The notes: a model not told the origin generated them from the letters alone. Numbered from the stretch's first letter, positions 744 to 22,062 are shown. The stretch: DNA of 64,000 nucleotides from Candidatus Moraniibacteriota bacterium (GCA_963743885.1 CAVURJ010000002.1:433706-497705); one strand, 5' to 3'. Made by a program: numbers and translations.

Positions 744-855
744 AAAAAAAGCGGCCTACCAGGTCGCCGCGCATTGGCGCTTGCCTGATAGGTCGCTTGG
801 TCCGCAATGTATGTGCTGCGGATATCGATCTACACCAGAATGATACCACCTTTCC
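744..855 (-). repeat. Conserved late-operon intercistronic element, copy 1 (body + GC hairpin GCGGC/GCCGC + U7)
   Basis: 100% identical over ~112 bp to 10079-10191. Hairpin at 751-770 with the T-run at 744-750 on the minus strand acts as a Rho-independent terminator after gene 872-2842. The next ATG is 9 nt downstream. Confidence 0.7.
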
Positions 856-871
856 ATGAATGGCGCAAGTC

Positions 872-2842
872 CTACCTGAACCAGGAGGCTGGTATCTTCT
901 TCGGCTTAATGACTCCCCTGGACTGTATCTTGAGGATGGTATATTCCGTATCCATCGAGTTCGACGATATCCTGAATTGGATGGCATACATCTCCTTTCC
1001 GACTTTCACGGCGCTCTTGATAGATGCCTGGGAATATGTCGTTGGGGCAGCCTCCTCGTCCTTGAGCGTTATCTCGCCCAGGAGGCCGGTCCAGAACTCG
1101 CTGACGCTGAGTGTATTCGCCACTGGCTTCGACGAGATGAGCGAGAAACCTTTCTTTGCCGTCAGGCCGTATACCTCGAAGGTTATATCCCCTTTTGCCC
1201 GACCGAGCACGCACAGAGCGTCCTTTATCTTCGCGGCGATAGTCTCATCGTCCTCGTCGATCGGTATGAGTCCGGAGATATACGATGTGCTGAAGGCTAC
1301 TCCGTCATCGCCGAGGATGTTCTCTGAGATCTCCGTCAGACGCGCGCCGGTCGTCGGTACGCCCAGAAGATGCGTATTCCCGTCGGAATCAGTGAACTCG
1401 AGGAACTGTCGGAATCCGATGGTCCACTTGTAGAACCACTCATCAAGCTCAGCATCATACCCGAAGATCATATCATTCTCATCGCCACCCTCTGATGCTG
1501 AGAATATGAGCTTCGAGTCGTAGAAATGCCCAGCCATCATCGGAAGCGATTTGAGCGAGGCGAATGTCGGACGGATATTCTCGGACATGGACTGTGTCGA
1601 GAGTATGTTCGTGACATTTTCCTTGTTGTTAAGCCTCGTTACTCCCTGGATAGACGGGAACCACAACGAGTCTTTCGCTTCCACGACCGCTCCTGGAGAC
1701 GTCGTTCCTACGGCGCCGGCTATCTTCGTTGGTGACGGGATGATGATTGTCTCGCCTGTTGAGGTGTCAACCAGGAATTGAACCTGCCATATCGACCCAT
1801 TCCCACCCGGGCCGCCCGTGATCGCTGTCGGCGCTGGATCTCCCTTTCCGGTCCGGAAATGCCCGACATACTGGAGCGTCTCGCCACATCCCTCATCGAG
1901 CTTCACCCAGCCACCGCCATCGGCATCGGCGAATGAAAAGAACTCCGCTCCGGTACCTGAGAAAAACACGGTATATGGATGGTTTTTCGGGTCGATTCCG
2001 ACGAGACGCGTCTCTGAGCGCCTGATCATGGAGAAGGCCGGGCCTTCCGTGGTATCGAAATCAGGGGCATCATTGAACGGGCTCGCCACAGCACTCGCAT
2101 CATCTTGGTATGAATTGGTGTATGCAATATCGAGCAGCTTCTCCTTTCCGGACTCGGTGGAATAGTACACCTGGTACTTCAGTGCGCCAGGGACGGCGGT
2201 CCATGACAGATCCACACGCTCGTTCGCATCTTTGTTCCATGTATTTCGCTCCTTGTTTACCGTGATATTGTACTCTGCACAGACGGGCGTCTCGCCTATA
2301 CCATTGAGAGCTGTCACTTTGTAGTAGAGATTGTATGTTCCTGACGTCAGGATGTTTCTCGTACCAGTCAGCCCAGTCGGGGTATCAAGCTTCACGAATC
2401 GGTCGAATATGGTTCCATTGAAGCGCGTAAGCGGATTCTCACCATTCGCTATGAGCAGATACCCGCCAGCCATTTCGAACCAGTACCGATTCGCATCCGT
2501 CGAGAAGGTTGCACCGGAAATCTCCGACCAGGTCACAGCATCCGATGATGAGTAGCCCTTTCCGCTACCGCATATCGCCAACAGCTTCTGAGTACCGTTC
2601 GATGCAGTGTATACCCCGGCGCCGACGATAGAGTCCTCACCTGGAACCTCGAGACCATATTTGGCCGTTCCCCAGCGCACCTTCCATTTTCCGTCCTGTG
2701 CCTGATAAAGATTGAGCGCTTCCTTGGCGTATATTTTTCCCAATACAATATCATCAAGGAGCGTCGCAACGCCCTTGAACACCTTTATGGACAGTGCCCA
2801 CCTCTTCTTTTGTGCGAACCCTCTCAGATTGGGAAACTTCAT
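872..2842 (-). CDS. Phage structural protein (tail/baseplate-like), 656 aa
   Basis: Large ORF in the structural module between the large virion protein and the tail fibre. No specific motif recognised. Confidence 0.4.
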   Translation of the reverse strand: MKFPNLRGFAQKKRWALSIKVFKGVATLLDDIVLGKIYAKEALNLYQAQDGKWKVRWGTAKYGLEVPGEDSIVGAGVYTASNGTQKLLAICGSGKGYSSSDAVTWSEISGATFSTDANRYWFEMAGGYLLIANGENPLTRFNGTIFDRFVKLDTPTGLTGTRNILTSGTYNLYYKVTALNGIGETPVCAEYNITVNKERNTWNKDANERVDLSWTAVPGALKYQVYYSTESGKEKLLDIAYTNSYQDDASAVASPFNDAPDFDTTEGPAFSMIRRSETRLVGIDPKNHPYTVFFSGTGAEFFSFADADGGGWVKLDEGCGETLQYVGHFRTGKGDPAPTAITGGPGGNGSIWQVQFLVDTSTGETIIIPSPTKIAGAVGTTSPGAVVEAKDSLWFPSIQGVTRLNNKENVTNILSTQSMSENIRPTFASLKSLPMMAGHFYDSKLIFSASEGGDENDMIFGYDAELDEWFYKWTIGFRQFLEFTDSDGNTHLLGVPTTGARLTEISENILGDDGVAFSTSYISGLIPIDEDDETIAAKIKDALCVLGRAKGDITFEVYGLTAKKGFSLISSKPVANTLSVSEFWTGLLGEITLKDEEAAPTTYSQASIKSAVKVGKEMYAIQFRISSNSMDTEYTILKIQSRGVIKPKKIPASWFR

Positions 2843-2854
2843 ATCTCGTGTCGT

Positions 2855-3499
2855 TTACATACCGAAACCCCAACCCGCCGGATTATCATCCGGCATGCTC
2901 GGTGGAAGATTCGGAATCTTCATCATGCGGAGCGCTTCCTGGGCGTTCGAGAGATTGACCTCTCCTTGGGAGAAATCCTCATCATCTATTCGCATCATGC
3001 CGATTCCGTACTGTACAATCATCGTTGGGTCGCTCATCTCCGGCTCCGTCGTCTCCTCACCGGTGGAGAATCGCGTCTCTTTCTTGAGATACTTAAACTC
3101 AGCCGTTCCGGAAGCAGCCGGAAGTGTACGAAGATTCTTGCCTTCTATCCAGGCGTAATACGGAGTAATACCCATGCGATCGGCCCGCACACCTTCCTGC
3201 GCGCTGACGACCAGGTAGAGGCTTCCTCCTACAGACACGCTGGCTCGGCCATCCGGCTCCCGGAAGAAATCCAAGAACTCGAGCCCGTGCAGATCTGTAC
3301 CGGTGCCACCGCACGCTACCGAAGCGTCGTTCTTGAGCTCCGGCCACTGTACACCCTCACGGACACATCTCTCATGCTCCGTTATGGCGCTATTCGCATG
3401 GCGGACCATAGTCGCCATCTCGTCGCTGCCGCTCTCTGGATACTCGGTATCCCCCGCGTACCCGACATGCATTTGCTTTATGATTTCCTGAAAATCCAT
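2855..3499 (-). CDS. Hypothetical phage structural protein, 214 aa
   Basis: Tightly packed in the late operon. No recognisable motifs. Confidence 0.35.
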   Translation of the reverse strand: MDFQEIIKQMHVGYAGDTEYPESGSDEMATMVRHANSAITEHERCVREGVQWPELKNDASVACGGTGTDLHGLEFLDFFREPDGRASVSVGGSLYLVVSAQEGVRADRMGITPYYAWIEGKNLRTLPAASGTAEFKYLKKETRFSTGEETTEPEMSDPTMIVQYGIGMMRIDDEDFSQGEVNLSNAQEALRMMKIPNLPPSMPDDNPAGWGFGM

Positions 3500-3516
3500 A
3501 TAGTTGCGTTATCTTG

Positions 3517-6500
3517 TTAGCGTCGGATTTTTCTGACCTTCTTAATCCTCGCCGGACGGAACGACATCATTCCGCGCCGCGAGATCGGTGCCGCCTTTGA
3601 ATCCATGAGTGCGAGCTCGAGGTCAATCATGTCCTTATCGATGAGTGGATAGCGAAACTTCTCCGGGAGCTTCTTCTCCGCTTTCGGCTTATTGAACGCC
3701 CCGCCGTATGATTCGAACTTCTCAGCTTCATTCGCGAGCGTATCTATCTGATTCTCATATTCCGAACGGTCCAAATCATCCACAGTAGGATCTGATACGA
3801 GCTTCTGAAGGAGCATATACTTCTTCTCAGCGTTATCGCGCCATTCCTGAAAGTTCTTTGCGCGCTTGTTCCCAGACATCCTGGCATTGAGGAGCTTCAC
3901 CGTGAACGAATCCTTCCGCTCCTGATACGCTGTACCGTCGTCTTTTTTCCTCAAGACATAGTCTCCGGCATCACGGAAGCTCTCATCTGAATCTTCGAAA
4001 TCCTCTCTCTCGATAGCCTGCCGCGCGAGTGTCTCGTTCTTGAAAGTCTTCGTATCAGACCTAAGTGCCGGAACGAAATACTTCCCGTCCTTGAGACGAT
4101 AGACACCTTCACCAACATCACCGGCCTCTCCCTGCTTGAGAGATCCACCAGCCTTGAGCCCCTCCTTCTCTTTGTTCGCTGAGCGGGAAGCCATAAGCGA
4201 TGAGTAGTATCCGCCTCGCTCGCCTTCCGGAAGCATTCGGAAAATCTCATCCTGTGTATCACCGAGAGGATTGCTGTCAGCTTCACGATAATCCTGCACC
4301 TCCTGAAGAGAGTTTTTACCGAAGAATAGTCCTTTTGCCATGTTGTACGGGCTCGATTCCACCGGCGTCATCACCTTGCCGGATGACGTCTCGGCAAATC
4401 CATCCATGAGCGTACCAACACCTTCGATGGAGTTCTTGATCTGCTTACCACCGAATGGTGGAGCGACCATGAAGAGTGGATCGGCGAAAGACTTGCTCAC
4501 AAGTAGACCACCACCGAATCTCGTCGGATCTTTATCTCCGAAAAGCTTCTCCCTTGTAGGAAGGTTGATTCCGGATCCCATGATGTCCTTCTTCCCATAT
4601 TCTGGATACATAGCCGCCACGGTCTGCCCAAGAGGGAGATTCGACAGTGCCTCTCCGGCGATACGTCCGCCGGCTCGCGTCAGTCCGGTACCGACAGTAT
4701 CTGACTCGCTATACGCTCCATACGCATCGATCATGGCCTGGATAGGATCAATGGCGACACCGCTTCCGCGTATCTCTTCAGCCGCCCGGTTCATCAGCCA
4801 CGTCGCCACAGAAAACTCCATGAGACGCTTCGCCAGAACAAGCTTACTCGGATCATTCTTCGCCCAGTCTCCGAATACTCTCCACTGGTTCGCTACCTCG
4901 AGCTGGAACGGTGCTATGAGCTGCGTAATCTTCGATTTTTGGAGGATAGGTACCTCTCCGATACCGCGGCCAGCCACCAGCTTCCGCGTCCAATCATCGG
5001 CATACTTCACCGGGTCGGACACGCCGAGTCCGAGCGCCTTCTGATACTGCGCGTTCCATGTGAATGTCGATCCTATCTTGTCCCCTATAGACGTAATCCA
5101 GACAGCGAAATCTTTCGTCCTATTGAGGATTCCAGGCTCAAACTTGTCATATCCGTTGAAATACCTCTCGTTCAGGAAAACGGAGCGCTTCGACGGAACA
5201 TCATCCTTCAGAATATCGACCATGCTATGGCCTATGGCGCGCGCCGAGTTCCTGACCCCCGCATTCGCGATTCCGTTCGGTATGCCGAAGAATTGTGCAA
5301 GCGCCGACGATGCGTTTCCAACGATTGTGTTCGCCTTCACTCGGCTATTGAGCCAATTTATCGCCTTGAAAGCCTGCCGTCCGAACATATTATCCTGGAA
5401 CGGCCTGTCGATTGGGTTCGTCTTACCGGCAAGGTCATTCGAGAAATTATCTAGGAACTTCAGGAAATTGTTGAGCTTGTTATCGGATGCCTCGGCAAGC
5501 GCCTTGGCATTGAACTCCGCCATTCCTTCTGGGGAGAGATTCTCGGTCATATACTCCTTCACCTTTCCGGCGTCCTTGATACCAGCGAGATCCTTCGCCA
5601 TGCGGACAGCGTCGCGGTCCTGGAGTCCTTTTCCGATGAGCAAGTTCTTGATTTCGTTCGGATCGGAAACACTGGCTATGCTTTCGAACGGATCCATCTT
5701 TTTCGAGAGCTCCTCCGCCAGTCCGACACTGGTATCGTCAAAGAACGCTCCGCGTGGAGTCTTTGACTTTATCTCTTGGTCTACTCCTCGGAAGCGCTGG
5801 ATGTGCGGATCAATATGCTTCGCGTACGCATTCGCCTTGATGTAATCGAGGAAGCCTCCAACGGCATCCATTTCGGTCTGCTTCCCAGTCCGCTTCTGAG
5901 CGAACGAGATCCACTTCGAGCTTGGCTTTGTGAACTGCGAAGACACGGCGAGAGCTGGATCGATATTCGCAGGCGTGTCGAAGATGTTCATGAGACCCTT
6001 GAATCCATCCGCCATCTCCTGGAAATGACGGTAGTAGTTCTCACGCTTCGGAATGACCTTAGTGCTCTCCGGGTGCAGCGGGTGCGTCGGGAAATAGAAC
6101 TCGCGGATGCGGTTCGTCTCATCGAGCATGTTGTCGTACATGTTCCGGAACCACTGGTCCGCCCGGACGACTTTGTCGGCCCCATCCTTTCCGAACTCTT
6201 TGACGAGGTCGTCATACGACATCCTCATCCCATCTGGCAATCCGGTATCTCCGTATTGCTGTACCGCCTGCGAAAGCCTGCTCCCCTTCTTGATACCGAG
6301 TCCGTCTACGATATGTTTCTGGAGTGCTTCGAGCTGCATACGCTGCTCATCGATAAACGCCCCCTTAGATGCGTCAAAAGGATCGAGAAGCTCGCTCTTC
6401 ACCTTCCCATAGGAATCGCCGAATACGTCCTCAAAGTTCCGATAGACGTCGCGCGTTCCAGCTTGGAGTGCTGATATATCCTTGAGCTTCACCGGGTCGA

Positions 6501-8112
6501 TTCCCTCCATGATCTTCGTATTGAGGTCTCGCTTCCTGGCGTAGTATTCCTTGAGCGTCTGATACGCCACGCGGTTCTTCAGGATGTTCTTCGTCATGTC
6601 AGAGCGGAAATCCATCATGGACTGGTGTCCCTTCGGATACCCAAGCCGCCCGAGCTCTGCGATGATCTTGCCTTCCTCCACGCCTATCTTCGCCGCTTCG
6701 GCCTTCTTGTATCCCATCGCGCGCAAAACATCCGGGACGTTCGCGATTTCCCGGAGATCCTGGATGATTTGCTTTCGCTTGTTGAAGGCGTCCTTCTGGT
6801 ACTTGTTATACCCTCCGGACGGAAACAGTGGCTCTGCCGGCTTCACAGGAGCCATAGGCTTCGCTGGATCAGGTATAGCATCCAATTCCTTCGATATGCG
6901 CTCGTCTATGCTCATAGGAGCGCTCTGAGGTGCTTTCTGGGGTGATGGCACCATCCTAGGCGCTACAGGAGCTCCTGGGGAAGTTTCCATGAGATTCCTG
7001 ACGGTTTCCTTAGCTGCGGCATTCTTCCTGGCGTTCAGAGCGTTCGCTTCGAGAGTGTTCTGGTTCCGTGGAGGACGACCGACGTTTTTGAGGCTCATAC
7101 CAGGCTGCGGCAGAGCATCCCGGACGGCCCGGCCGACATCAGAAAGCGTCGGGGAGGCTTTGCGCTCCACGACTTGCTCCGGGATGAGCTTCTCCTTGCG
7201 GATCCCATATACCGGAGACTGCGATACCTTGTCGAATCCAGCCTTGAAGGCCTTCCCAGAATACCGCTCCCCTTCTCCAAGCTTCGGTATCACCCCTGGC
7301 TTTCCATCAGCGTCGGAAGCGAATCTCACGACACCGCCATCACTCCAATGAGACTGTAGCCTTTCAGTTTTCAGAGGCTGTGTCCTGTTTCGTATCGAGT
7401 TCTTCGCCGCTTCCGGGACAGACTCCATGATCTCCTTCACCTTCTTCGCTGCTCCAGTAGCATCGTCAATACCTTCCTTCGCGAGAATGGTTGTCGGACG
7501 CATCAGGCCAGAAACGACACCGCCGAGAGCTGTACCCATTCCAGGTTTGAAAGTATCCGCGTTCGTCTTCTCTTCTTTCGACATCTTGTCGGCTACATCA
7601 TAGGCATACCCAAGTCCAGCGCCGCCAGCGACGCGTTTCACGACGCTCGGAGACATGAGCATCTTTGCTGTAGCCTTGATCTTGCCAAACGGAGCGATCT
7701 CTATGACAGACTTCGCTGTATCGGCGAGCATCTTCTTCGGAGTAAGATCCGTCACCGTCGGAAGAATATCGGTATTTCCAGCCTTGTACTGCTTCCTGAC
7801 ATTCTTGTCGACAGCGAATGCCGCACCCTCACCGATTACCTTCGGAGCCTTCGACAGAACGTTCTTCGTCCCGGAAAACATCTCTCCAACGTTATGGCTC
7901 GCCTCACGCACGAAATCCCGCGTCCGGAGTTCCGGAGCGGGCTCGAAATACCGTTCCACCGGCCGCGAACGCATCAGTTCGCTTGCGCTGTCCGCGGCCG
8001 ATTTCCCGATACGGGATATTTTCGATGTAGTGTTACCGAGAGCGTCAATGGCGCCATCTCCGATGTCGGAAATCTTCTTCTTCGCTTTTCGGTAAAAGTC
8101 AACGAGCGCCAT
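3517..8112 (-). CDS. Large virion protein, 1531 aa (tape-measure-like or internal/ejection protein)
   Basis: Single uninterrupted 4.6-kb ORF with Gly-rich and coiled-coil segments. Its position between head and tail genes is typical of tape-measure or internal virion proteins. Confidence 0.4.
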   Translation of the reverse strand: MALVDFYRKAKKKISDIGDGAIDALGNTTSKISRIGKSAADSASELMRSRPVERYFEPAPELRTRDFVREASHNVGEMFSGTKNVLSKAPKVIGEGAAFAVDKNVRKQYKAGNTDILPTVTDLTPKKMLADTAKSVIEIAPFGKIKATAKMLMSPSVVKRVAGGAGLGYAYDVADKMSKEEKTNADTFKPGMGTALGGVVSGLMRPTTILAKEGIDDATGAAKKVKEIMESVPEAAKNSIRNRTQPLKTERLQSHWSDGGVVRFASDADGKPGVIPKLGEGERYSGKAFKAGFDKVSQSPVYGIRKEKLIPEQVVERKASPTLSDVGRAVRDALPQPGMSLKNVGRPPRNQNTLEANALNARKNAAAKETVRNLMETSPGAPVAPRMVPSPQKAPQSAPMSIDERISKELDAIPDPAKPMAPVKPAEPLFPSGGYNKYQKDAFNKRKQIIQDLREIANVPDVLRAMGYKKAEAAKIGVEEGKIIAELGRLGYPKGHQSMMDFRSDMTKNILKNRVAYQTLKEYYARKRDLNTKIMEGIDPVKLKDISALQAGTRDVYRNFEDVFGDSYGKVKSELLDPFDASKGAFIDEQRMQLEALQKHIVDGLGIKKGSRLSQAVQQYGDTGLPDGMRMSYDDLVKEFGKDGADKVVRADQWFRNMYDNMLDETNRIREFYFPTHPLHPESTKVIPKRENYYRHFQEMADGFKGLMNIFDTPANIDPALAVSSQFTKPSSKWISFAQKRTGKQTEMDAVGGFLDYIKANAYAKHIDPHIQRFRGVDQEIKSKTPRGAFFDDTSVGLAEELSKKMDPFESIASVSDPNEIKNLLIGKGLQDRDAVRMAKDLAGIKDAGKVKEYMTENLSPEGMAEFNAKALAEASDNKLNNFLKFLDNFSNDLAGKTNPIDRPFQDNMFGRQAFKAINWLNSRVKANTIVGNASSALAQFFGIPNGIANAGVRNSARAIGHSMVDILKDDVPSKRSVFLNERYFNGYDKFEPGILNRTKDFAVWITSIGDKIGSTFTWNAQYQKALGLGVSDPVKYADDWTRKLVAGRGIGEVPILQKSKITQLIAPFQLEVANQWRVFGDWAKNDPSKLVLAKRLMEFSVATWLMNRAAEEIRGSGVAIDPIQAMIDAYGAYSESDTVGTGLTRAGGRIAGEALSNLPLGQTVAAMYPEYGKKDIMGSGINLPTREKLFGDKDPTRFGGGLLVSKSFADPLFMVAPPFGGKQIKNSIEGVGTLMDGFAETSSGKVMTPVESSPYNMAKGLFFGKNSLQEVQDYREADSNPLGDTQDEIFRMLPEGERGGYYSSLMASRSANKEKEGLKAGGSLKQGEAGDVGEGVYRLKDGKYFVPALRSDTKTFKNETLARQAIEREDFEDSDESFRDAGDYVLRKKDDGTAYQERKDSFTVKLLNARMSGNKRAKNFQEWRDNAEKKYMLLQKLVSDPTVDDLDRSEYENQIDTLANEAEKFESYGGAFNKPKAEKKLPEKFRYPLIDKDMIDLELALMDSKAAPISRRGMMSFRPARIKKVRKIRR

Positions 8113-8132
8113 ACCGCGTATCCGTTATTGGT

Positions 8133-9371: not shown

Positions 9372-9386
9372 GGCTGTGCGCTAGTG

Positions 9387-9415
9387 TTGACAAAATTATT
9401 GATTTACACTATACT
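9387..9415 (+). promoter_or_regulatory. Sigma70-like promoter TTGACA-17-TATACT driving the plus-strand moron
   Basis: TTGACA at 9387-9392, a 17-nt spacer, and TATACT at 9410-9415. ATG of the downstream gene is at 9435. Confidence 0.45.
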
Positions 9416-9434
9416 TGCTCGTTATAATTGCCTT

Positions 9435-9812
9435 ATGGCTAGGAAACTTTTCATCGTCTCGTCGTTCGTGATCATATCGGCTTCGCTGGTTGTTTTTTCG
9501 ACTGCTTTCATCAACTGGACGAGCTATGGATTCAGCACCGGATTCGGTGATTCAATGATTCCAACTTTTCATCCTGGCACTCTGATATTTACTAACCCGC
9601 TCGAGACTCCAGAGATTGGTGATATTGTTTCATTCAAATGCTTGAGTAAGGAGAAATGCGACCGCTCTGGTGATATTGTTCATAGACTTGTTTCTGTCGA
9701 TCCTGACGGCTGCATGCATATTTACGGTGATAATGCTTCCATGAACTGGGACCCTAAGTGGTGCCTCTATCCAGACGAGATATCTATTTCAGGAGTGGTT
9801 CATAAGCTGTAA
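9435..9812 (+). CDS. Signal peptidase I-like (S26 family) protein, 125 aa
   Basis: N-terminal TM helix followed by the GDSMIPTF motif (S26 catalytic Ser box GDSMxPT). Plus-strand gene embedded in the minus-strand structural module. Start moved to the internal ATG at 9435 (MARKLF...). Confidence 0.55.
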   Translation: MARKLFIVSSFVIISASLVVFSTAFINWTSYGFSTGFGDSMIPTFHPGTLIFTNPLETPEIGDIVSFKCLSKEKCDRSGDIVHRLVSVDPDGCMHIYGDNASMNWDPKWCLYPDEISISGVVHKL

Positions 9813-9867
9813 TCATATGAAGACTCTGTTTGACTTGAAATGTTTTTAAATAATTAATTTTTTAAAT

Positions 9868-10065
9868 ATGTTGATACTTTTAAAAATATTCAGGATATTT
9901 TCGGTAATTTTCCTTGTATTACAGGTATCATCTTCATTGATACCGTATTTCATTACTAATCATTTCGGTGAGTTTCATGTTCCGACATTCTTTTTATGGC
10001 TTCTAATCTTTGCAATAACTCAAAACTATATTTCAAAGAAAATCGTTCCAGAAAAAGAATCCTGA
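9868..10065 (+). CDS. Small two-TM membrane protein, 65 aa (holin-like size, function unknown)
   Basis: AT-rich segment with two hydrophobic helices and a charged C-terminus. Co-oriented with the signal-peptidase-like gene. Confidence 0.3.
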   Translation: MLILLKIFRIFSVIFLVLQVSSSLIPYFITNHFGEFHVPTFFLWLLIFAITQNYISKKIVPEKES

Positions 10066-10078
10066 TTTTTTTCAAACA

Positions 10079-10191
10079 ACAAAAAAGCGGCCTACCAGGT
10101 CGCCGCGCATTGGCGCTTGCCTGATAGGTCGCTTGGTCCGCAATGTATGTGCTGCGGATATCGATCTACACCAGAATGATACCACCTTTCC
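10079..10191 (-). repeat. Conserved late-operon intercistronic element, copy 2
   Basis: Identical to 744-855. Hairpin at 10087-10106 with A8 at 10079-10086 (U-run on the minus strand), directly after the stop of 10221-11687. The plus-strand moron begins just downstream. Confidence 0.7.
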
Positions 10192-10220
10192 GAAAAGAGC
10201 GCAAGATGGTTTTTTGATGT

Positions 10221-11687
10221 CTACAACCACTCCACTGGGAATCGGAAGAACTCCTGTCCGCCCGGGCGCATATGGTATATCCACTTCACTCCGTCAGCTG
10301 TCACGAGGAACTTTGAGCGCTTCCCGTCGTATGCTCCTGGGTTCGCATACGGCATCGTCGGTCCTGGTTCGAGTATGCCGGTGACGAGGTTCAGTATCAT
10401 CGTACGCTTCTGGCTCTCCTTTGCGATGAAGATTTTACGCTCCCCATGCATGAAGGTGGAGGATGCGCCTGTTCCTATCGTCTCGCTCCCCCAGTAGGTC
10501 GTTATGGTCTCAAACGTCGCGAGGCCGAAGTTGTACCGATACAGTGTATTCCCGCCACCTCCGCGCAGGCAATAGAGCCCAAATGGGTCTGAATTGTGCG
10601 GATGGAACGTCATGCACCCGCCTGCTGGTGCTGCTGGGAAAGCCCCAAGAGATGCGCTCCATGCCGCACCGGTAGTCTGAGCAACATCAAGCCGGTAGAG
10701 TGTATTCGACGTGCTACCAGGGTTGTAATAGACGAAATCAGAAGACGGTACGATCTGGAAGACAGACGTGTCATCTGGAGGTGTCGTCCAGTTTCCGGTC
10801 CTGGCGTTTCCAGTGACTGCGGCCGCAAGCGTCAAGGTATCCGTCGTGTTCGACGCAATTCTCCTCCGCTGGCCGATGCCTGTTCCGGACAAGATCACAA
10901 CATCAGAAAAGGCATACTTGTTGGCCGTCCATCCAGCGCCAGTCATCACGAGTGTCGTTGACGATCCGGATGTCGCTGTCCCCTTTGGAGTGATGACGAT
11001 GAACGTATCCCCTGCGGTAGGTGCAGAGCCGAAAGCCGCCACGGTAAGCGTCTTCCCATTAGGTACAGCTGTGATTATCCTCCTCTGCCCGGAGAGCGCC
11101 CCGGATGTAAACTCGATATAGTTTCCGATAAGGCCAGAGAAGAATGTTCCGGTCGTTTCTTTCCCTGAAACATTGTCGATGATCGATGTAGCGGTACACC
11201 CGGAGGCTACTGCTCCATCATCGAGGTTTCCGCTCAGTGTCACGTCATCAGGGAGCACGATATTCGCTCCGTAGTCAGCCACGGCAGGAAGGACGACAGT
11301 GATAGTCGTAAGTGCTCTGGCGGCGCAGGAAACGTTGGCTATAGTGACGGTAGTAGTATTGAGGTTGAATACCTGCCACGACGTCAGACCGGCCCCATGG
11401 ATGATATAGAGGACATTCCTGACGGGGTCATATTCGATATCAAGACCCCTATTCCCGTTAGTAATCGTCGCGAGAGGCGTCCAACCAAGCGTCCACGTGT
11501 CAAAAATATACAAGACGGTCGTTGAGGCGCTCGTGGCTGTCGTACCGTACTGGATAGCCCAATACTGGTATCTTACGCCATCGTATGTGCATGATGTTCC
11601 ATGATACGATGGCCCGGGCATGAAGAAGTCCAGCCACTGCTTGACCACGAAATCGACACCCTTCTTGAAATAATAGTTCACCGACAT
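10221..11687 (-). CDS. Putative receptor-binding/tail protein (Thr/Gly-rich, beta-propeller-like), 488 aa
   Basis: T/G/S-rich repetitive beta-strand composition typical of phage fibre or receptor-binding proteins, in the late-operon context. Confidence 0.4.
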   Translation of the reverse strand: MSVNYYFKKGVDFVVKQWLDFFMPGPSYHGTSCTYDGVRYQYWAIQYGTTATSASTTVLYIFDTWTLGWTPLATITNGNRGLDIEYDPVRNVLYIIHGAGLTSWQVFNLNTTTVTIANVSCAARALTTITVVLPAVADYGANIVLPDDVTLSGNLDDGAVASGCTATSIIDNVSGKETTGTFFSGLIGNYIEFTSGALSGQRRIITAVPNGKTLTVAAFGSAPTAGDTFIVITPKGTATSGSSTTLVMTGAGWTANKYAFSDVVILSGTGIGQRRRIASNTTDTLTLAAAVTGNARTGNWTTPPDDTSVFQIVPSSDFVYYNPGSTSNTLYRLDVAQTTGAAWSASLGAFPAAPAGGCMTFHPHNSDPFGLYCLRGGGGNTLYRYNFGLATFETITTYWGSETIGTGASSTFMHGERKIFIAKESQKRTMILNLVTGILEPGPTMPYANPGAYDGKRSKFLVTADGVKWIYHMRPGGQEFFRFPVEWL

Positions 11688-11697
11688 ATGATTCTTG

Positions 11698-13053
11698 TTA
11701 TGTGATTACCCACTTCTGGCGACGAAGTTCCATGACGATTTCCGAGAACTCCCGCTCCATATCCCTCGTATCGGAGCCTGCTGGAGATCCGGTGCTGTAA
11801 GGGACCGGCTGTGAGTTGTAGCTTCCCCACTGCGGGACCATTGTAAGCGTTCCTGAGACGCGGAGCTGGTCTGAAGTATCCTTCGCATACGGAAGCGCAA
11901 TCTGGATCATTCCGTGCTTCGTAGCGCGCTCTATACCAGCCGTCAGATCAGCCATCTGCTGAACAAGTGCCTGAAGCAGTACCTGGTTCGATACGATACT
12001 GTCTTGCTTCTCCGAGGTAGCCAATCCGGCCGGGAGAGACTCCACGGAAACCGGCTGCGTATCTGCTGGAGTGGTCAACGCCGCGGTATTGGCCTCCAAC
12101 CCGTCTACCGCTGACGAAATAGCATCTAGAACGGTTCTGATACCTTTCAGGCGATCCTGCAGCGTATTGGACGTAGGACTGGCATCAACTTCACCTATAC
12201 GGTCCGACACCTCTTGCGTCTTTGCTTCCAATGTATCGGTATTGAGATTGACGCTGTCTGCAGTAATCTCGAGCTGGTCGGTATTAGCAGCCACCTCTGA
12301 TATGGCGGAAAGGATCGACTGGAGCGTCGCCTCCGTGGCGTCGCCTCCTGACTTTCCGAAGAATCCGGCGCCACCTACTCTGTCGACCGCTACCTTCACG
12401 CGTCCCTGCTCATCGAGCGGGAGATTCAGAGAACCTGATCCGGAAGACTTTCCAATTTCCCTGATAGCATCAATCACCTTCGAAAGGTCAAACTCCGGAA
12501 ACCATTTCGGCTTATTCGGAATATCTACCGTCATCTTGTCCGGAATCTCCACGTGCACGGTGCTTTCCGGGATGATAATCTCCGGCAGCTTTATCTCGGG
12601 AACCTTGATCTCTGGTACCTGGATCTTCGGAAGTTTGATTTCCGGGATGGATACATTCACCTCGATAGGCTCTTCCCGCTTACTTGCTACCTCTTTCCTC
12701 AGGACTCCTATGGCATCGATAAACGCTGTTTTGAGGCGGTCTATGGCCGATATAGTCCCAGAGCCCACCTGTATGCCAACACGGGCCTCCTGGCGCGTTT
12801 TCTTGAGTTCCTCGGTGAGCTTTTCTGACGCTTCCCGCAAATCTTTCCTGGCCCATCTTGATGTGGATACGATAGCCTGGATGATATCCTGGTCATCAAA
12901 ATCAGCCTTCTCCTTCACTATCTTGGACAACGCCGCTATCGCCTTCGGTGCGTCATCCTTTGATCGCAATATTTGAAAAACAAATTGAGCGATAAGATCA
13001 GTATCGCCCTTACTCTGCTGTTTTGCTCTGAGATATTCGTCTCTGTTTTCCAT
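11698..13053 (-). CDS. Phage structural protein with (I/V)PEIK(L/V)P repeats and coiled-coil segments, ~452 aa
   Basis: ORF 11698-13233 trimmed to the internal Met (MENRDEY...) so it does not overlap the upstream gene. Contains IPEIKLPKIQVPEIKVPEIKLPEIIIPE repeats. Confidence 0.4.
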   Translation of the reverse strand: MENRDEYLRAKQQSKGDTDLIAQFVFQILRSKDDAPKAIAALSKIVKEKADFDDQDIIQAIVSTSRWARKDLREASEKLTEELKKTRQEARVGIQVGSGTISAIDRLKTAFIDAIGVLRKEVASKREEPIEVNVSIPEIKLPKIQVPEIKVPEIKLPEIIIPESTVHVEIPDKMTVDIPNKPKWFPEFDLSKVIDAIREIGKSSGSGSLNLPLDEQGRVKVAVDRVGGAGFFGKSGGDATEATLQSILSAISEVAANTDQLEITADSVNLNTDTLEAKTQEVSDRIGEVDASPTSNTLQDRLKGIRTVLDAISSAVDGLEANTAALTTPADTQPVSVESLPAGLATSEKQDSIVSNQVLLQALVQQMADLTAGIERATKHGMIQIALPYAKDTSDQLRVSGTLTMVPQWGSYNSQPVPYSTGSPAGSDTRDMEREFSEIVMELRRQKWVIT

Positions 13054-13132
13054 ATAGTGTTCGCCTTCCCACTCCTGCCGCGATCGACCCACTCGCTTAC
13101 GCGAGCGCGGCATGAGCGGAGAGGCGAATGCC

Positions 13133-13477
13133 TCATTCCGCGGCCTCTTCAGCCAGTTTCGCCTCGATAAGAGCGGCAATAGCCGGATTCGTAGAACCTT
13201 CCGGAACGACGATTCCGAGCTTCTCGCACTCATTGAGAAGGTCAGCCTTCTTCATCTTGCCATAGTCGACAGGCTTCTGATCATCGGCCTTCTCCTCTTC
13301 GAGGATGGAGGCAAAAGCGACAGCCTGCGCTTCTGACAAGTACGAACGGCGCGCCCGGATGAAGGCGATGTCCTCCTTCTTGAGGGAGCTTACACGTACC
13401 TTCACGAGCTTTTCGAAGCGTGCCTGCGAATGCGGGTCCATTCCTTCGCTCGGTGCTTCTTCCATTTTTCGTGCCAT
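13133..13477 (-). CDS. Small acidic protein with HeH/Rho_N-like motif, 114 aa
   Basis: C-terminal ...KMKKADLLNECEKLGIVVPEGSTNPAIAALIEA... resembles HeH/SAP/Rho-N helices common in phage head-associated proteins. Confidence 0.35.
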   Translation of the reverse strand: MARKMEEAPSEGMDPHSQARFEKLVKVRVSSLKKEDIAFIRARRSYLSEAQAVAFASILEEEKADDQKPVDYGKMKKADLLNECEKLGIVVPEGSTNPAIAALIEAKLAEEAAE

Positions 13478-13568
13478 ATGCGCGTTGTTGCGTTAATTAG
13501 AGACTCGCCGACCTTACGAGCCTTATACTACTCCGGAGCATTGTCCGGAGTAGTAAAGACCAACAAGC

Positions 13569-14729
13569 CTAGGCAGACTTGTTGAACTTGGCAAAGAGGC
13601 AGACGCCAGCCTTGCGGCGCTCGTCCGCAACCTTCTCGCCATGGACGAAGAGTCCCTTGACGACGTCGCTGAACGACTCTCTGGAGTTCTCAGACTTGAT
13701 CACGTGCGGATCTTCGATGAAATCGAAGGCGCCAGTGATAAAGGCGCGATGACCACCAACACAGTAGAAACCGTCGGTGTTATCGCCTTCGAACCACTCG
13801 TCAGGAAGCATGTAGACAGTGAAACCGCTGATCTTCCCGATCTCTCCCTTCTCAGTCACCTCGTCGTACACCTTACCGATGCCAGTGCCGAGAGCAGCAG
13901 CCGCGCTGAGGAGCACAGGCTGTGCCGCGAGCGCCGGGAGCGCGATCCAGCGCTTCCCATCGTTCGGGATGCTGAGCTTCGTGAGCATCGCCGAGAGGGT
14001 ATCAAGGTAGAACTTGATAGTGAGCTCGGTAACGGCAAGCACGGTAGCAGCCTGGATCTCGTACGACGCGCCGGCCGAGATGGCACCGCCGGTGTATGCG
14101 GAATCCTTGTCGTCGCTGTCGTCCTCGATAGTGATGGACGTAGCTGACGAATAGGCCTTCACGCGAGACCAGGCGGAATGGCCATCAGCCTTGAACGGCT
14201 TACCGACCATATCTGAGGTGAACGCAGAGCTTGAGCCAGTGACAACACCGGTCGTAGCAGCGACGGCTACGGTACCAGCGACGTGCGACGTACCGAGCCA
14301 GTTGCCAGACGCGGCGCAGTCGTACATCGTCAGGAGCGACTTGTCCATCTCCTCATAGAGCTGGTTCGCTGCCTGGTTGATGAGCTCGCTATCCGGGTTC
14401 TCGACCGCCGACGCGAATGCATCGATGGACGGGATCTCATCGGAGAGCTCAAGCGGCGTATCGACGATAAGCCGCGAGATCACCTCCTCGACAGTCGAGT
14501 AAGTGATGGCACCCTTGCCGGTAGACGACTTCCAGCCGCCGCCCTTGAGGGTGGTGACCACGAACTCCTTGACGGTCTTCGTGATCTTCTTCTTCGCCTT
14601 CGGATCAGACACATTGGCGGCCTCGAAGTCCGAGTTCACCACGTCCACATACATGGACCGGCGAAAGAACTTCTGCAGGGCCCGCGTTTTGTACTTGATC
14701 GAAGTCGAGGTTGTTCCAAAATCGGACAT
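13569..14729 (-). CDS. Putative major capsid protein (HK97-like by context), 386 aa
   Basis: Follows the scaffold-like gene in the terminase-portal-scaffold-capsid order. Size and composition fit a major capsid protein. Confidence 0.5.
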   Translation of the reverse strand: MSDFGTTSTSIKYKTRALQKFFRRSMYVDVVNSDFEAANVSDPKAKKKITKTVKEFVVTTLKGGGWKSSTGKGAITYSTVEEVISRLIVDTPLELSDEIPSIDAFASAVENPDSELINQAANQLYEEMDKSLLTMYDCAASGNWLGTSHVAGTVAVAATTGVVTGSSSAFTSDMVGKPFKADGHSAWSRVKAYSSATSITIEDDSDDKDSAYTGGAISAGASYEIQAATVLAVTELTIKFYLDTLSAMLTKLSIPNDGKRWIALPALAAQPVLLSAAAALGTGIGKVYDEVTEKGEIGKISGFTVYMLPDEWFEGDNTDGFYCVGGHRAFITGAFDFIEDPHVIKSENSRESFSDVVKGLFVHGEKVADERRKAGVCLFAKFNKSA

Positions 14730-14751
14730 ATGACTTCACAATTACGCGGAA

Positions 14752-15741
14752 TTATTCCGGTATTTGCCCTTTACGAACCATTTCTCGGTACTTATCAGGG
14801 TCTTCTTTTGAAATCCGCTCGATTTCATCCCAACTGAGAGTCTTCGGAGCAGATGACTTGTCCGAGCCGGAGATGGCCCCGGATAACGCCGCTCTCCTTT
14901 CGTCCTCGACCTTCTTGGCTTCAATTTCGGCGACCTTCGCCTCGCTCTCTGCCTTGACGCCGGTTACGAGCTCGTATGCTTCTGATAGCTTCTTGCCGCT
15001 CGACACAAGTGCCGCACATGCCTCAGCTACCTTCTTGTCGTACTCAGGCTTGTCTTCCTGGAGATCAGGGTGGGACTCGTATGTATCACGAATGTCCTTG
15101 TTGAAAGCCTCGATACGATCCTCCTCTTGCTTCTGATGAAGCTTATCTTGGGCGCGAGATTCGACGATAACGTCGAGTTCCTCGTCTGGGATGGTGAAGG
15201 GTGTTTTGTCCCCTGGATTCTTGAGCCTACTCTTGAGAGCAAGGAGCTCCTTGAGCTTGGCTTCGCGTTGTTCGTATGGATACTTCGCGATTTCCTGGGC
15301 AAACTCATCGATATTGATGTCGGAAGCAGACTCGTCACCTTCGAGCACTTTGATGTCCCGGTAGAGCTGCGCAATGCGCTTATCTGACCGATACACCTTC
15401 GGACCTTGTACTGGCACCGTTTCCGGCTCCTTACCCTGGTCCGGCTTCGTCTCTCCGGCTTCTGGCTTCTTTCCGTCTTTCCCTTCCCCTTCGTCGCCTT
15501 CCTTCCGCTCCGGCTCTTGCGCGGCCGGCTTGGGTTCCTCTCCAGATTTCTCAGGTTCGGAAGCGGGTTTCTTGTCTTCTGCGGGCTTCGATGCAGGTTG
15601 CGCTCCCTGCTCGAAGTTTTCCTGTCCGACAAGATCCTTGATGCGCGGGTCGACTTCCTCTGACGCGGGAATGACGGGTTCGACCTTTGCTTCTGCGGGC
15701 GGAGTGGCGCCTCCGTCTGGCGTAAGATCCTTGGGATCCAT
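14752..15741 (-). CDS. Putative scaffolding protein (acidic, K/E-rich coiled-coil), 329 aa
   Basis: Highly charged low-complexity coiled-coil protein between the portal-like and capsid-like genes. Confidence 0.45.
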   Translation of the reverse strand: MDPKDLTPDGGATPPAEAKVEPVIPASEEVDPRIKDLVGQENFEQGAQPASKPAEDKKPASEPEKSGEEPKPAAQEPERKEGDEGEGKDGKKPEAGETKPDQGKEPETVPVQGPKVYRSDKRIAQLYRDIKVLEGDESASDINIDEFAQEIAKYPYEQREAKLKELLALKSRLKNPGDKTPFTIPDEELDVIVESRAQDKLHQKQEEDRIEAFNKDIRDTYESHPDLQEDKPEYDKKVAEACAALVSSGKKLSEAYELVTGVKAESEAKVAEIEAKKVEDERRAALSGAISGSDKSSAPKTLSWDEIERISKEDPDKYREMVRKGQIPE

Positions 15742-15837
15742 AAGTTTCGGCCTAATGGTTACGAGTGGGCCGACCTCGTATGCATACGGATCATCTCCTT
15801 GCGGAGAAGTACCCGAGGATGGGGAGTCGATACCCCA

Positions 15838-16236
15838 TTACTCGGAAACTCCTTCTGTTTCTGGTTGCGATGTTTCCTTCTCTTTTTCCTCTTCTGATTT
15901 CTGGTACACTTTCGCGGATGAGGTGCTCTGCGCCCAGGCGATGAGCTTCCTCATGTTCTTGATGCTTTCACTTCGAGCGATATCGATGGCTCCTATGAGT
16001 TCGAGCGAAGTATTTGAGCCAAGCTCTTCCGTATTGACCGGCTCGAGGAGTTCCACGATCATCTCCTCGGCATGCTCTACGATGAGCTGCCAACCTTGCG
16101 TCTGGACGGTCTCTGCCACCATGCATTCTTCTCGATTCTTCCGATCCATGTAGCCCTTCTCGTTGGATACGCGCTCCTTGATAGCCTTATCGCGGCGAGT
16201 CGAGACTTCCCTTATGATTTCTTTTACGTCGCTCAT
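15838..16236 (-). CDS. Hypothetical head-morphogenesis protein, 132 aa
   Basis: Translationally coupled (4-nt overlap) with the portal-like gene. Confidence 0.3.
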   Translation of the reverse strand: MSDVKEIIREVSTRRDKAIKERVSNEKGYMDRKNREECMVAETVQTQGWQLIVEHAEEMIVELLEPVNTEELGSNTSLELIGAIDIARSESIKNMRKLIAWAQSTSSAKVYQKSEEEKEKETSQPETEGVSE

Positions 16237-17996
16237 ATGGTCGGTTCGTTAACGGCTTCCTGCTGCGGCATGATCTCCGCCATCATCTGTTCCATCTGCG
16301 GGTCGACTTGCTCAGCCATAGGCTCAGCTGACGGTCCACCTTCACCTATGCCAGGTACTGATTCCGGGTTGACGGAATCGATGACGATCTTGTCCCAATC
16401 CGGAATCTTCTTGTCGATAGCGATACGCTTCACAACCTCGCCGTAGTCAACCTGCTTCCCTGAGTTCCTGAGGGATTCCTTCATGTCTGGGCTTTCCTCG
16501 ATAAGCTTCAGTATGCCGAGGAGATCTTCGGCTCCGCCGGGAAGCTTCCCAGATGAGCCTTCGTCGACCGTGTACCGGAAAGTACGGTCTTTGAGGAGAT
16601 TGTCGTCAACCTTACCGTTCGCGAAGATAGCGATGTCCTTGTCTTCGAAATTGATGCCGATACGCCTGATTGCATCCGAGATGTTCCTGATGGAAGCTCC
16701 GCCGACGCCGCCACGCTTCACGACCATGGCCATCATCTTGTCGGCCAGGCGCTCATGGAAACGCTCCTGCATGTAGCGGTCCCAGTTGTCGCGCGCGCCT
16801 TCGCGGTTCGCCTGCTGCTTGAGAGCCTCTGGCGTCTTTCCAAACCCAGGATCGACAGACTTTGGGACGGACGTGTCTGTAGTCGCCCCGAGAGACAAGA
16901 GGTTTCCCTTGACGATTCCGTAGGTGCTCTGGAAGGTCTCAGTGCCCTTCGGAGATACATTCGCGAACTTGATGCCTTCTACCTTGCCATCCTTCACGAA
17001 CCAGTTCTTGCTTGAGCCTCGGATGATGGATGACATGACGACATCCTCCGGATCCATGATCGCCGGCGGATTGATGGAAATAGCCACGGAATCGAGATAC
17101 ATCCGGATGAGCGTATCGATGGTCTTCTGCGACGTTTCGCCGCGCTCGTAGTCAGAAAGCCCCCAGTACCGGTCCAGGAGTGGGATAGTCTGCTTGTCGA
17201 CAATCGGGATGCCAGGGTTCCATTCCCTCTCATCGATGATGGTAATTCCAGTCACCTTGTCGATAAGCTTCCAGTCACCGTTCGAATCGAAGACATGGAC
17301 GAGCCAGAGACCCTTCTTGGTCTGCAGCGCGCGCCGCTCCTCGATAGTCATCATGAGAGAATCAGTATTCGGAATGGATGGGTTTCCGCCACTGTACTCA
17401 GCGAGAACTTTTTTTCCACCTTCTCCCCATATCTCTGGGAAGTTCTTCACTCTGTCAGCAAGCCATTTTATTGTTGGGAATGCGTCAACAAAGAGTCGGT
17501 CCATATCGTCGATGACGTACTTCCCCGGCTGCGGCTTGAAACGGCGCGGATGGATAAGCACTGATCCAGGGCCCTTATATGCGTCCGTCTGGATCCAATC
17601 GACGAAAACCGGCATCGTTCCGTATACGTTCGAAAAGACGTTGACCATGCGCTCCTTGGTCAGGAAATCCCCTCCCTGACGGTCGTTCGGTATGATATGT
17701 TCGTGGAATACGAGGTTCGCCGCGATGATGCTGGCGATATCATTCTCGTCGTCCAAGTGGAAGCGTCCGCTGAAAAGCTGGGCCATGATACGGCAGGACT
17801 TGTCGATGACGAGACCCTGCAGCTCTCCGGAGGAATACACCGACTTGGTGTTTTCGCGCTTATCCTTGTATCTGTGATAAAAAAGGCTTTCCCGGTCATC
17901 CCAGGTAAACCCGCTGTCAGCAACATCCTTCACCGCCTTCTCCGCTTCGGAGTATTCCTGAAGAATATCGTCGGATATTTTTTCGCCTACTGGCAT
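16233..17996 (-). CDS. Putative portal protein, ~587 aa
   Basis: Large ORF immediately downstream of the terminase large subunit. Start moved to MPVGEK (ATG 17996) because the annotated N-terminus MRGDLVGRFF is a translation of the repeat/terminator element. Confidence 0.5.
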   Translation of the reverse strand: MPVGEKISDDILQEYSEAEKAVKDVADSGFTWDDRESLFYHRYKDKRENTKSVYSSGELQGLVIDKSCRIMAQLFSGRFHLDDENDIASIIAANLVFHEHIIPNDRQGGDFLTKERMVNVFSNVYGTMPVFVDWIQTDAYKGPGSVLIHPRRFKPQPGKYVIDDMDRLFVDAFPTIKWLADRVKNFPEIWGEGGKKVLAEYSGGNPSIPNTDSLMMTIEERRALQTKKGLWLVHVFDSNGDWKLIDKVTGITIIDEREWNPGIPIVDKQTIPLLDRYWGLSDYERGETSQKTIDTLIRMYLDSVAISINPPAIMDPEDVVMSSIIRGSSKNWFVKDGKVEGIKFANVSPKGTETFQSTYGIVKGNLLSLGATTDTSVPKSVDPGFGKTPEALKQQANREGARDNWDRYMQERFHERLADKMMAMVVKRGGVGGASIRNISDAIRRIGINFEDKDIAIFANGKVDDNLLKDRTFRYTVDEGSSGKLPGGAEDLLGILKLIEESPDMKESLRNSGKQVDYGEVVKRIAIDKKIPDWDKIVIDSVNPESVPGIGEGGPSAEPMAEQVDPQMEQMMAEIMPQQEAVNEPTI

Positions 17997-18003
17997 AGAA
18001 AAA

Positions 18004-18059
18004 CAAAAAAAGCGGCCTACCAGGTCGCCGCGCATTGGCGCTTGCCTGATAGGTCGCTT
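18004..18059 (-). repeat. Conserved intercistronic element, copy 3 (hairpin + U-run conserved, body diverged)
   Basis: Same AAAAAAAGCGGCCTACCAGGTCGCCGCGCATTGGCGCTTGCCTGATAGGTCGCTT core as copies 1 and 2. U-run + 8 nt + ATG of the portal gene. Confidence 0.6.
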
Positions 18060-18123
18060 CGCTCTCGGTGCGTTTTTCTATGCCGCGTGAGAGTATCGAT
18101 CTACGCTGTCATGATAGCATGTA

Positions 18124-21750: not shown

Positions 21751-22062
21751 TTATCTGTTATCAAAATGGATAAAAATGCCCCTTCTCGTCGCCGGCGTGA
21801 TGATGATAGCGGCATCCTGCCGTATCCACCCGCCCCGGCGCAGGAACGACACGATAGGGGCTATATACGCCGATTCAGGAAACGTCCCGGCTCTGATGCC
21901 TATCTCAACCGCTATCGCCTCTTCTGGACGCGCTAGAGATGCCATGAGCGCATCCCTGACGGCATCCGTCATGGTAGTCTTGCGGGCGGAGCGGATTGCC
22001 CAATTCAGGCGCCGGTGCTCCTTCTGCGTAGCCACCTCGATGTCGATTTTTATTTGGGGCAT
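21751..22062 (-). CDS. Hypothetical protein, 103 aa
   Basis: ORF in the phage early region. Confidence 0.3.
   Translation of the reverse strand: MPQIKIDIEVATQKEHRRLNWAIRSARKTTMTDAVRDALMASLARPEEAIAVEIGIRAGTFPESAYIAPIVSFLRRGGWIRQDAAIIITPATRRGIFIHFDNR

Follow-up and report, generated by a model that had tools for sequence, protein, structure and literature searches.

Of the described systems, the one closest to the element analyzed here is that of the lambdoid phages, in which transcription from an always-active late promoter stops just downstream, with a short RNA as the product (PMC7547250). In the lambdoid PR′-qut-tR′ arrangement (6S RNA/StxS), which goes with Q, a sigma-70 promoter is followed by an intrinsic terminator within ~100–200 nt, ahead of the late genes. 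The element lies in a stretch of 64,000 nucleotides (nt) from Candidatus Moraniibacteriota bacterium (GCA_963743885.1 CAVURJ010000002.1:433706-497705; the whole stretch is called the window), the left 30 kb of which are a prophage with nearly all of its genes on the minus strand. The element is present there in three copies, called cassettes below. Judged from the sequence, each copy very probably consists of a promoter, a short RNA and an intrinsic terminator, and the cassette is most suitably classed as a variant of the control of late genes by promoter-proximal termination.

With the lambdoid arrangement the cassettes share the putative sigma-70 promoter with an intrinsic terminator shortly downstream and ahead of late genes, the prophage setting, the short RNA as predicted default product, as from PR′-tR′ (PMC7547250), and the upstream gene order (O-like initiator, RusA-like resolvase, small proteins, late region). 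They differ in being present two to three times per genome rather than once, in lying inside the virion-gene region and downstream of the terminase gene, and in their conserved parts, which are the terminator itself and a 5′ box within a shorter leader (70–100 nt); no Q homologue was found in the cassette phage, nor a convincing -10-like pause element. The nut sites (boxA/boxB) of N systems and the put sites of HK022 are likewise promoter-proximal RNA elements with more than one copy per phage, and their copies match within a phage and differ between phages, as would be expected of sites that a phage-specific factor reads or that act on RNA polymerase. The nut and put elements, however, act on downstream terminators and are not terminators themselves, whereas the cassette appears to be one; its upper loop varies freely and is not boxB-like (such a loop was seen only in the sister-clade leader described below), and no N-like protein was identified. 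Ordinary Rho-independent terminators resemble the cassette in having a GC-rich hairpin directly followed by U6–8, but the cassette hairpin, with its 15 + 4 pairs and asymmetric loop, is of unusual length, its stem base is conserved across phages, and it is always coupled to an upstream promoter pattern in a fixed architecture.

All cassette coordinates are on the minus strand and are counted from the first letter of the window. The copies, numbered from the left end and assigned to sites a, b and c as in related phages, were made up as follows.

18111–18139, minus strand: copy 3 (site a, before the portal gene), putative promoter TTGCGC-N17(..TGc)-TATCAT, from the pattern search and the table of 16 copies
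18094–18104, minus strand: copy 3, A box GTAGATCGATA, 6 nt past the -10 box, with its first purine as predicted start; RTAG stands at the same distance in 16/16 copies
18062–18093, minus strand: copy 3, hairpin 1 (CUCUC..GCG..CGC..GAGAG), a retained stem-loop with a sequence unlike that of copies 1 and 2
18005–18059, minus strand: copy 3, predicted long terminator hairpin (18010–18059) and U7 (18005–18011), followed by the portal ATG at 17996
10176–10204, minus strand: copy 2 (site b, after the head module), putative promoter TTGCGC-N17(..TGg)-TATCAT
10159–10169, minus strand: copy 2, A box GTAGATCGATA
10137–10158, minus strand: copy 2, hairpin 1 (UCCGCAGcacauacaUUGCGGA)
10081–10134, minus strand: copy 2, predicted long terminator hairpin (10085–10134) and U6 (10081–10086), facing convergent plus-strand genes
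840–868, minus strand: copy 1 (site c, before the last virion gene), putative promoter TTGCGC-N17(..TGg)-TATCAT
823–833, minus strand: copy 1, A box GTAGATCGATA
801–822, minus strand: copy 1, hairpin 1, of the same sequence as in copy 2
744–798, minus strand: copy 1, predicted long terminator hairpin (749–798) and U7 (744–750), with the next ATG at 734

The repeat is real and non-random. A repeat search of the window paired 745–869 with 10081–10205 (copies 1 and 2, 96% over 125 nt); on direct reading, 745–855 and 10081–10191 matched without mismatch over 111 nt, and the first base 3′ of this identity was T in copy 1 and G in copy 2. An earlier sequence-only reading had placed two identical copies at 744–855 and 10079–10191; the repeat stands, with its ends shifted by 1–2 nt. 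The same reading had credited the third copy with the 3′ half and the hairpin, which was correct (46-mer 18012–18057 identical to the other copies; 59-mer 18001–18059 98% identical), but had overlooked the upstream promoter and A box of this copy: the whole cassette extends over 18005–18139 and keeps the further-upstream boxes CTTGCGC, TGnTATCAT and GTAGATCGATA, the common boxes of the copies being TGnTATCAT-N6-GTAGATCGATA. The 46-mer core occurred three times in the window against 0.00 times expected from shuffles. A stop codon precedes each copy (872–874, 10221–10223 and 18124–18126), and the U-tracts end 9 nt (copy 1, ATG 734) and 8 nt (copy 3, portal ATG 17996) before the next ATG, in agreement with the positions described earlier. 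Copy 2 faces plus-strand genes. The open reading frame (ORF) starting at 734 gave no match in a Pfam scan, and its former label of tail fibre was not confirmed. The copies are not a mere assembly duplicate, as their flanks differ and diverged copies occupy the same syntenic sites in related phages.

A sigma-70-type extended -10 promoter pattern, TTGNNN-N16-18-TGn-TAnnnT-N6-RTAG, was found in 16/16 copies of the cassette family, with unrelated spacers. In the window copies it reads TTGCGC-N17-TGnTATCAT, with a weak -35 box that in copy 3 falls within the end of an upstream ORF of 122 amino acids. The ~85-nt body of the element, left anonymous in the sequence-only reading, thus starts with a conserved promoter pattern, and the element is better described as its own putative transcription unit. 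Four matches to the full pattern were found in the window (0.03 expected), one of them outside the cassettes:

29592–29630, minus strand: fourth putative promoter, TTGACA-N17(..TGg)-TATCAT-N6-ATAG, heading a minus-strand phage gene cluster

This fourth promoter has no terminator and is followed by an ATG (29544) ~50 nt downstream. On these matches, RTAG at +1 appears as a signature of the promoters of this phage, and transcription is predicted to start at the purine of RTAG (RTAGA). The host hrcA promoter is canonical (TTGACG-17-TATACT). A generic promoter and terminator scanner run over the window did not pick up the cassettes because the -35 box is weak and the hairpin long. A leaderless-like ATG without a Shine-Dalgarno motif had been proposed as a feature of the element; lack of the motif is genome-wide. 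A loose scan of 37 phage and host genes gave six weak Shine-Dalgarno-like hits and none for the rest, host dnaK, grpE and hrcA had no motif (starts checked include 60604, 61849 and 62750), and the starts lacking it include 17996 and 734, with ATG 29544 as an exception (clear GAAGGAGAG upstream). No promoter positioned to begin transcription at ATG 734 or 17996 was found.

Downstream of the predicted start, the leader follows one plan: a 5′ box RUAGAUCG, an optional hairpin, a long hairpin and U6–8. The optional hairpin 1 occurs across the family in three unrelated versions and is missing in most relatives; the L001 orthologue of the copy 3 hairpin 1 shows a U-A to C-G change (L numbers denote related loci). 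The long hairpin (~50 nt, 5′ arm AAGCGACCUAUCAGG) has on its 5′ side an A-A-GCGRYCUAU-NNNN arm leading into a variable upper stem-loop, and on its 3′ side an internal loop with GCGRCC and the arm NNNN-RUAGGYCGC-U-U. Minimum free energies were -37 to -44 kcal/mol for the element and -27 kcal/mol for the long hairpin alone, which is followed by U7. A covariance model (R1) built from eight copies recovered 16 copies at 51–85 bits and nothing comparable in ~170 other loci. In the 16-sequence alignment, 95.4% of the cells of the 19 pairs were paired, seven pairs showed compensatory double changes (29 cells), none of 500 shuffles reached the observed covariation score, and slid registers paired only 32–46%. 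The long hairpin, tested as a fold with covariation in related phages, is thus strongly supported across the 16 copies, and it replaces the shorter GCGGC-N10-GCCGC hairpin first drawn for the element, which was wrong. The nine pairs of the stem base are nearly invariant in sequence, while the middle and upper stem covary freely, and a U6–8 tract stands directly at the stem in all 16 copies. With a hairpin directly followed by a U-tract, the element is predicted to end in an intrinsic (Rho-independent) terminator on the minus strand.

The same alignment bears on whether the cassettes act as DNA or as RNA. A DNA-level site, formed by repeated 9-mers (TAGATCG, CGACCTA, GCGACC and TAGGTCGC) or a cruciform and bound by a phage protein such as q103 (described below), could serve in repression, in recombination at module junctions or in packaging; the copies do lie at module boundaries, the sub-sites are conserved in sequence in both orientations, and q103 descends from a junction-resolving enzyme. 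In the stem, however, G·U cells numbered 20 and A·C cells 4, and the constraint therefore acts on the RNA of the late-gene (minus) strand; this strand bias fits an RNA and neither a cruciform nor a duplex operator. The free covariation of the middle and upper stem is that of a hairpin, the spacing between 5′ box and 5′ arm varies from 5 to 40 nt across the family, and a DNA site would leave the U-tract and the promoter geometry unexplained, so that we hold it to be very unlikely. An even smaller chance is given to a processing or stability hairpin, that is, an RNase III-type site as between T7 genes at which the late RNA would be cut to leave a protective 3′ hairpin. The length of the hairpin, its intercistronic position, its conserved internal loop (GCGRCC on the 3′ side) and its repetition between gene blocks would agree with such a site, but U6–8 directly at the stem of every copy is a hallmark of intrinsic termination, and the hairpin is preceded by its own putative promoter. 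A pac or cos site, a replication origin, a mimic of CRISPR repeats and a phi29-type packaging RNA were set aside because there are three syntenic copies with promoter and terminator geometry.

Searches of Rfam 15 at gathering thresholds returned two tRNAs only for the window and nothing for L003 and L179; in E-value mode, only weak, sub-threshold, terminator-like matches to the terminator parts of small RNAs were obtained. By these searches the cassette is a putative RNA/regulatory family new to Rfam and a candidate for a new RNA family entry. The 70–100-nt RNA could itself be the product, acting in trans through its conserved, single-stranded 5′ end (RUAGAUCG) or by binding a protein, with the position before late genes being secondary. 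Such small regulatory RNA genes would have their own promoter and terminator, as the cassettes do at the level of sequence, and the expected size; the 5′ box is unpaired in the most stable fold, the copies are multiple and evolve in concert, the only weak Rfam similarities are to small-RNA terminator parts, and StxS provides a precedent (PMC7547250). Against this, a scan of the window for complementary targets gave nothing significant (one site with one mismatch, 1.3 expected), RTAG at +1 also stands at the fourth, mRNA-making promoter and in sister-clade leaders, so that the core of the "seed" may be promoter context, and a free-standing gene needs no tight spacing of 8–17 nt to the next ATG. 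We consider a small regulatory RNA unlikely as the main function; it would be compatible with a termination checkpoint, as with StxS from PR′.

Two to three copies per genome were found in relatives, in the same three places: ahead of the portal gene, behind the head module and ahead of the last virion gene. The first comparison was with a 69%-identical relative (L001) and was followed by 15 further copies, with a fixed plan throughout. Site a was occupied in 11 genomes (window copy 3, L001, L003, L016, L108, L179, L193, L194, L195, L198 and L199), site b, which faces opposite-strand genes, in seven (window copy 2, L003, L016, L179, L182, L189 and L198), and site c in the window (copy 1) and L183 (counterpart at L183:9734-9805), where the flanking proteins are 49–52% identical. 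The portals of cassette-bearing phages are only 32–69% identical, and the stem base is still conserved in sequence. At sites a and c, the U-tract stood 8–17 nt before the next ATG in 7/8 relatives with downstream sequence read, the site a copy of L016 having no ATG directly after its U-tract. Copies within one genome were more alike than copies of different genomes (window copies, L183/L193 and copies a and b of L196), which bears out the earlier suggestion that the identity reflects selection or conversion. The genome had been taken as an otherwise unique phage genome; it is a ~30-kb prophage beside host genes, and the element family is present in at least 12 related phage or prophage contigs. 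Portal relatives lie on contigs labelled Moranbacteria/Parcubacteria, and by these labels the host is probably a bacterium of the tiny-genome Candidate Phyla Radiation type. No match came from BLAST of the element and the surrounding 12 kb against GenBank phages, from a scan of IMG/VR for exact 24-mers or from a scan for close relatives with the portal protein alone.

A strong hairpin with a U-run within 200 nt upstream of the portal ATG was present in 79 of 112 distinct relatives, compared with 37 of 547 control windows, and at least 48 of the 79 also had a promoter pattern 57–220 nt upstream. A predicted terminator directly before the portal gene is thus clade-wide (~70% of the 112 related phages). 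A sister clade has a different portal leader of 95–140 nt (L180:9750-9890, L181, L006/L103, L083, L101 and L106), in which a GGG-UGAAAUAY-CCC hairpin with a covarying stem and a boxB-like loop is conserved and is accompanied by a long covarying terminator specific to this leader; the leader had no match in Rfam and is likewise a candidate new RNA family entry. Terminators with the same stem base (AGCGAUCUAU...AGGUCGCUUUUU) and with neither promoter nor 5′ box were seen in unrelated low-GC (~33%) phages from IMG/VR (L184–L188 and L191); this likeness is probably a chance match to the search pattern because a few such matches are expected in a library of that size.

Taking as established the repeat itself, the geometry of the promoter, covariation in the hairpin, synteny and the clade-wide hairpin before the portal gene, we read the cassette as a promoter-proximal termination checkpoint for late genes, to which we give an even chance overall; for regulated read-through as such, the estimate is even or slightly below. 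A host-type sigma-70 promoter would start an RNA at the purine of RTAGA, which in this phage would run through the variable hairpin, reach 70–100 nt and stop at the very stable long hairpin and U6–7, at sites a and c 8–9 nt before the start codon of a virion gene. No other promoter was evident between the terminator and the downstream genes at sites a and c or for the gene after the copy 2 slot, and therefore the portal/head, tail and last-virion blocks would need read-through of the terminators: whether polymerase starts at the cassette promoter or arrives from upstream genes, it would have to pass the terminator before a virion block could be expressed. By default, in the prophage or in early infection, only the short RNA would be made; late in infection, a phage factor would suppress termination, following the logic of lambda PR′-tR′/Q, and the short RNA may act in trans as well. 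Sequence conservation is concentrated in the stem base (GCGRYCUAU/RUAGGYCGC), in GCGRCC, which partly repeats the stem base within the 3′ internal loop, and in RUAGAUCG, the 5′ box, and the co-evolution of these boxes among the copies of one genome hints at a phage-specific partner. The sequence-only reading had offered a terminator/antiterminator, a processing site or a small RNA; the terminator is borne out by sequence features, and the antiterminator and the small RNA both stay live.

A candidate partner was sought among the ORFs at 18–29 kb. Pfam and PHROGs profiles turned up the O-like initiator, the RusA-like resolvase, a small zinc-ribbon protein and a weak RHH-like match (E 0.012, below threshold) for the following gene:

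21751–22062, minus strand: q103, a degenerate RusA-like protein of 103 amino acids, tentative trans factor on co-occurrence only

A single-sequence search returned only q103 itself. Homologues were present in L001, L003, L004, L016, L179, L182 and L193–L199; all 14 q103-bearing loci had at least one match to the cassette model, which was strong (50 bits or more) in 11. Conversely, a homologue was found in all cassette-positive loci covering the region and in none of the eight cassette-negative loci with sufficient upstream DNA. When contigs were fetched by way of q103 homologues only, 5/5 had a cassette match just before the portal gene, three strong and two of a weaker variant, whose a and b copies were near-identical. 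The cassette-positive loci lie in two separated clades of the portal tree. Compared by hhalign, the q103 family matched phage RusA-like proteins (probability 97.8%, E 8e-13), whose profile matches PDB 1Q8R (E 4.6e-5), and the RusA catalytic acidic motifs (RRDPDN, DDNG) are lost in all q103 members, which have xxxPExx and non-acidic residues. By these comparisons, q103 is a putative diverged paralogue of the phage RusA-like resolvase lacking the catalytic acidic motifs. That it is the termination factor of the cassette is decidedly doubtful. Cassette and degenerate RusA-fold q103 together might constitute a previously undescribed form of late-gene termination control in Candidate Phyla Radiation phages, which we regard as unlikely: q103 would recognize three parts of the multi-copy RNA (stem base, GCGRCC box and 5′ box), the RNA would have two folds (one long hairpin or three hairpins), and on binding, the terminators of all virion-gene blocks would be switched together, either off or on.

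Several points weigh against regulated read-through and its tentative partner. Among the ORFs at 18–29 kb, Pfam and PHROGs profiles for Q, N and other antiterminator families found none. In the +1 box, RTAGA(U) is conserved at +1 to +6, hexamer position 6 is C, G or A in most copies, and a binding element could not be defined; for want of a T at that position the box is not a convincing -10-like pause element, and a qut-type mechanism is therefore not indicated. Read-through at site b would proceed antisense through a conserved gene. The q103 structure model from AlphaFold was moderate (pLDDT 75.6), and the PDB fold search from this model gave a best match at E 0.014, with a TM score of about 0.4 for RusA; the link between q103 and the cassette is a correlation only. 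From sequence we infer that the promoters are active, that transcription terminates, that read-through is needed, that an antiterminator exists and that q103 has a role. An RNA-only antiterminator switch, which would dispense with a partner, fared no better. As in BglG/LicT-RAT, TRAP and PyrR leaders and riboswitch platforms, a 5′ segment can pair with the terminator 5′ arm in every member (the helix of 5′ box and 5′ arm was predicted in 15/15 truncated folds), and the variable hairpin falls in the loop of this alternative helix. Unlike in these leaders and platforms, the helix is without covariation, being invariant or A·C-mismatched in several lineages, and it does not remove the terminator, whose 3′ half by itself still folds next to the U-tract (-10 to -13 kcal/mol); the cassette also has no aptamer-like conserved core and no Rfam match. 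RTAG is in addition present at the unattenuated promoter and in other leaders, and the RNA-only switch was dropped.

A leaky attenuator without a dedicated factor fits the same anatomy and likewise counts against a regulated checkpoint. The cassettes would then be constitutive attenuators or insulators, partial stops that close the preceding unit and set the ratios of module transcripts, with internal promoters topping up transcription and no antitermination factor. Identical anatomy is expected, no antiterminator homologue was found, the terminator at site b would sensibly shield the convergent gene, and pre-portal terminators are common in the clade whatever the leader sequence. A promoter placed ahead of its own very strong terminator (-27 kcal/mol and U7) would, however, be an odd top-up, sequence conservation at the stem base, in the loop box GCGRCC and in the 5′ box exceeds structural need, and the concerted evolution within genomes and the co-occurrence of q103 point to specific recognition. 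On balance, constitutive attenuation is judged improbable, and the late-gene termination checkpoint is retained as the best explanation.

The genes of the prophage and its surroundings to which the cassettes were related are as follows.

25872–26786: O-like replication initiator
23330–23686: RusA-like resolvase
22367–22582, minus strand: zinc-ribbon protein of 71 amino acids (CxC...CxxC), just upstream of q103
18514–20226: terminase
16233–17996, minus strand: SU10-type portal
13569–14729: capsid homologue
9435–9812, plus strand: signal-peptidase-like (S26/S24) gene with an N-terminal membrane segment, convergent on copy 2, with promoter TTGACA-17-TATACT at 9387–9415
3517–8112: protein of 1531 amino acids

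The plus-strand gene in the copy 2 slot had been noted earlier as a moron; its presence was confirmed, and it is a signal-peptidase-like gene in a slot that is similarly filled in relatives, with opposite-strand genes in L003, L016, L179, L180, L182 and L196 and Peptidase_S26-like genes in L180, L182 and L196. Homologues of the zinc-ribbon protein occur in cassette-positive (L001) and cassette-negative (L006, L181) phages, and it is possibly a general late regulator. Within the prophage, at 24443–25363, a 27-nt unit corresponding to a 9-residue repeat recurs ~34 times in tandem; it belongs to an ORF of 477 amino acids (24056–25489) with weak RIIB-like/DUF7666 similarity. Two similar bidirectional terminator-like palindromes (AAAACCGGC-N-GCCGGTTTTTT) were found at 30908–30932 and 37161–37185, the former between a nuclease gene at the prophage edge and a host hemerythrin gene. 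Bacterial genes begin at ~31 kb (AcrB/HlyD, tRNAs, release factor, DsbA, DnaK-GrpE-HrcA). The release-factor ORF (42135–43076, minus strand) begins at position 29 of the PCRF profile, as would be expected of a prfB-type gene whose N-terminus is missing or frameshifted. Several repeated intergenic families lie in the host part at 50134–54883, between NUDIX, NADAR and PaaX/Cas2-like genes (four 58-nt units with ACGTAATCAATTACGTAAT, palindromes around GACGGCCGTC and one 78-nt pair), and short arrays of a 14-nt unit (GTATCTnGTATnT-like) lie in host regions at 41197–41265, 48680–48734 and 62753–62793, one of them upstream of hrcA.

Almost nothing is known of how genes are regulated in Candidate Phyla Radiation phages or of the transcription signals of these bacteria. 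The cassette supplies concrete candidate signals, namely a promoter consensus, a predicted start site and a covariation-supported terminator, and with them a conserved regulatory architecture, in that ~70% of 112 related phages have a predicted terminator immediately ahead of the portal gene. Its pieces are short enough for tests in vitro or in E. coli, with no need to cultivate the host. If read-through proves to be factor-dependent, a new antitermination pair would be formed by the genome-specific multi-copy cassette and the degenerate RusA-like protein that occurs alongside it.

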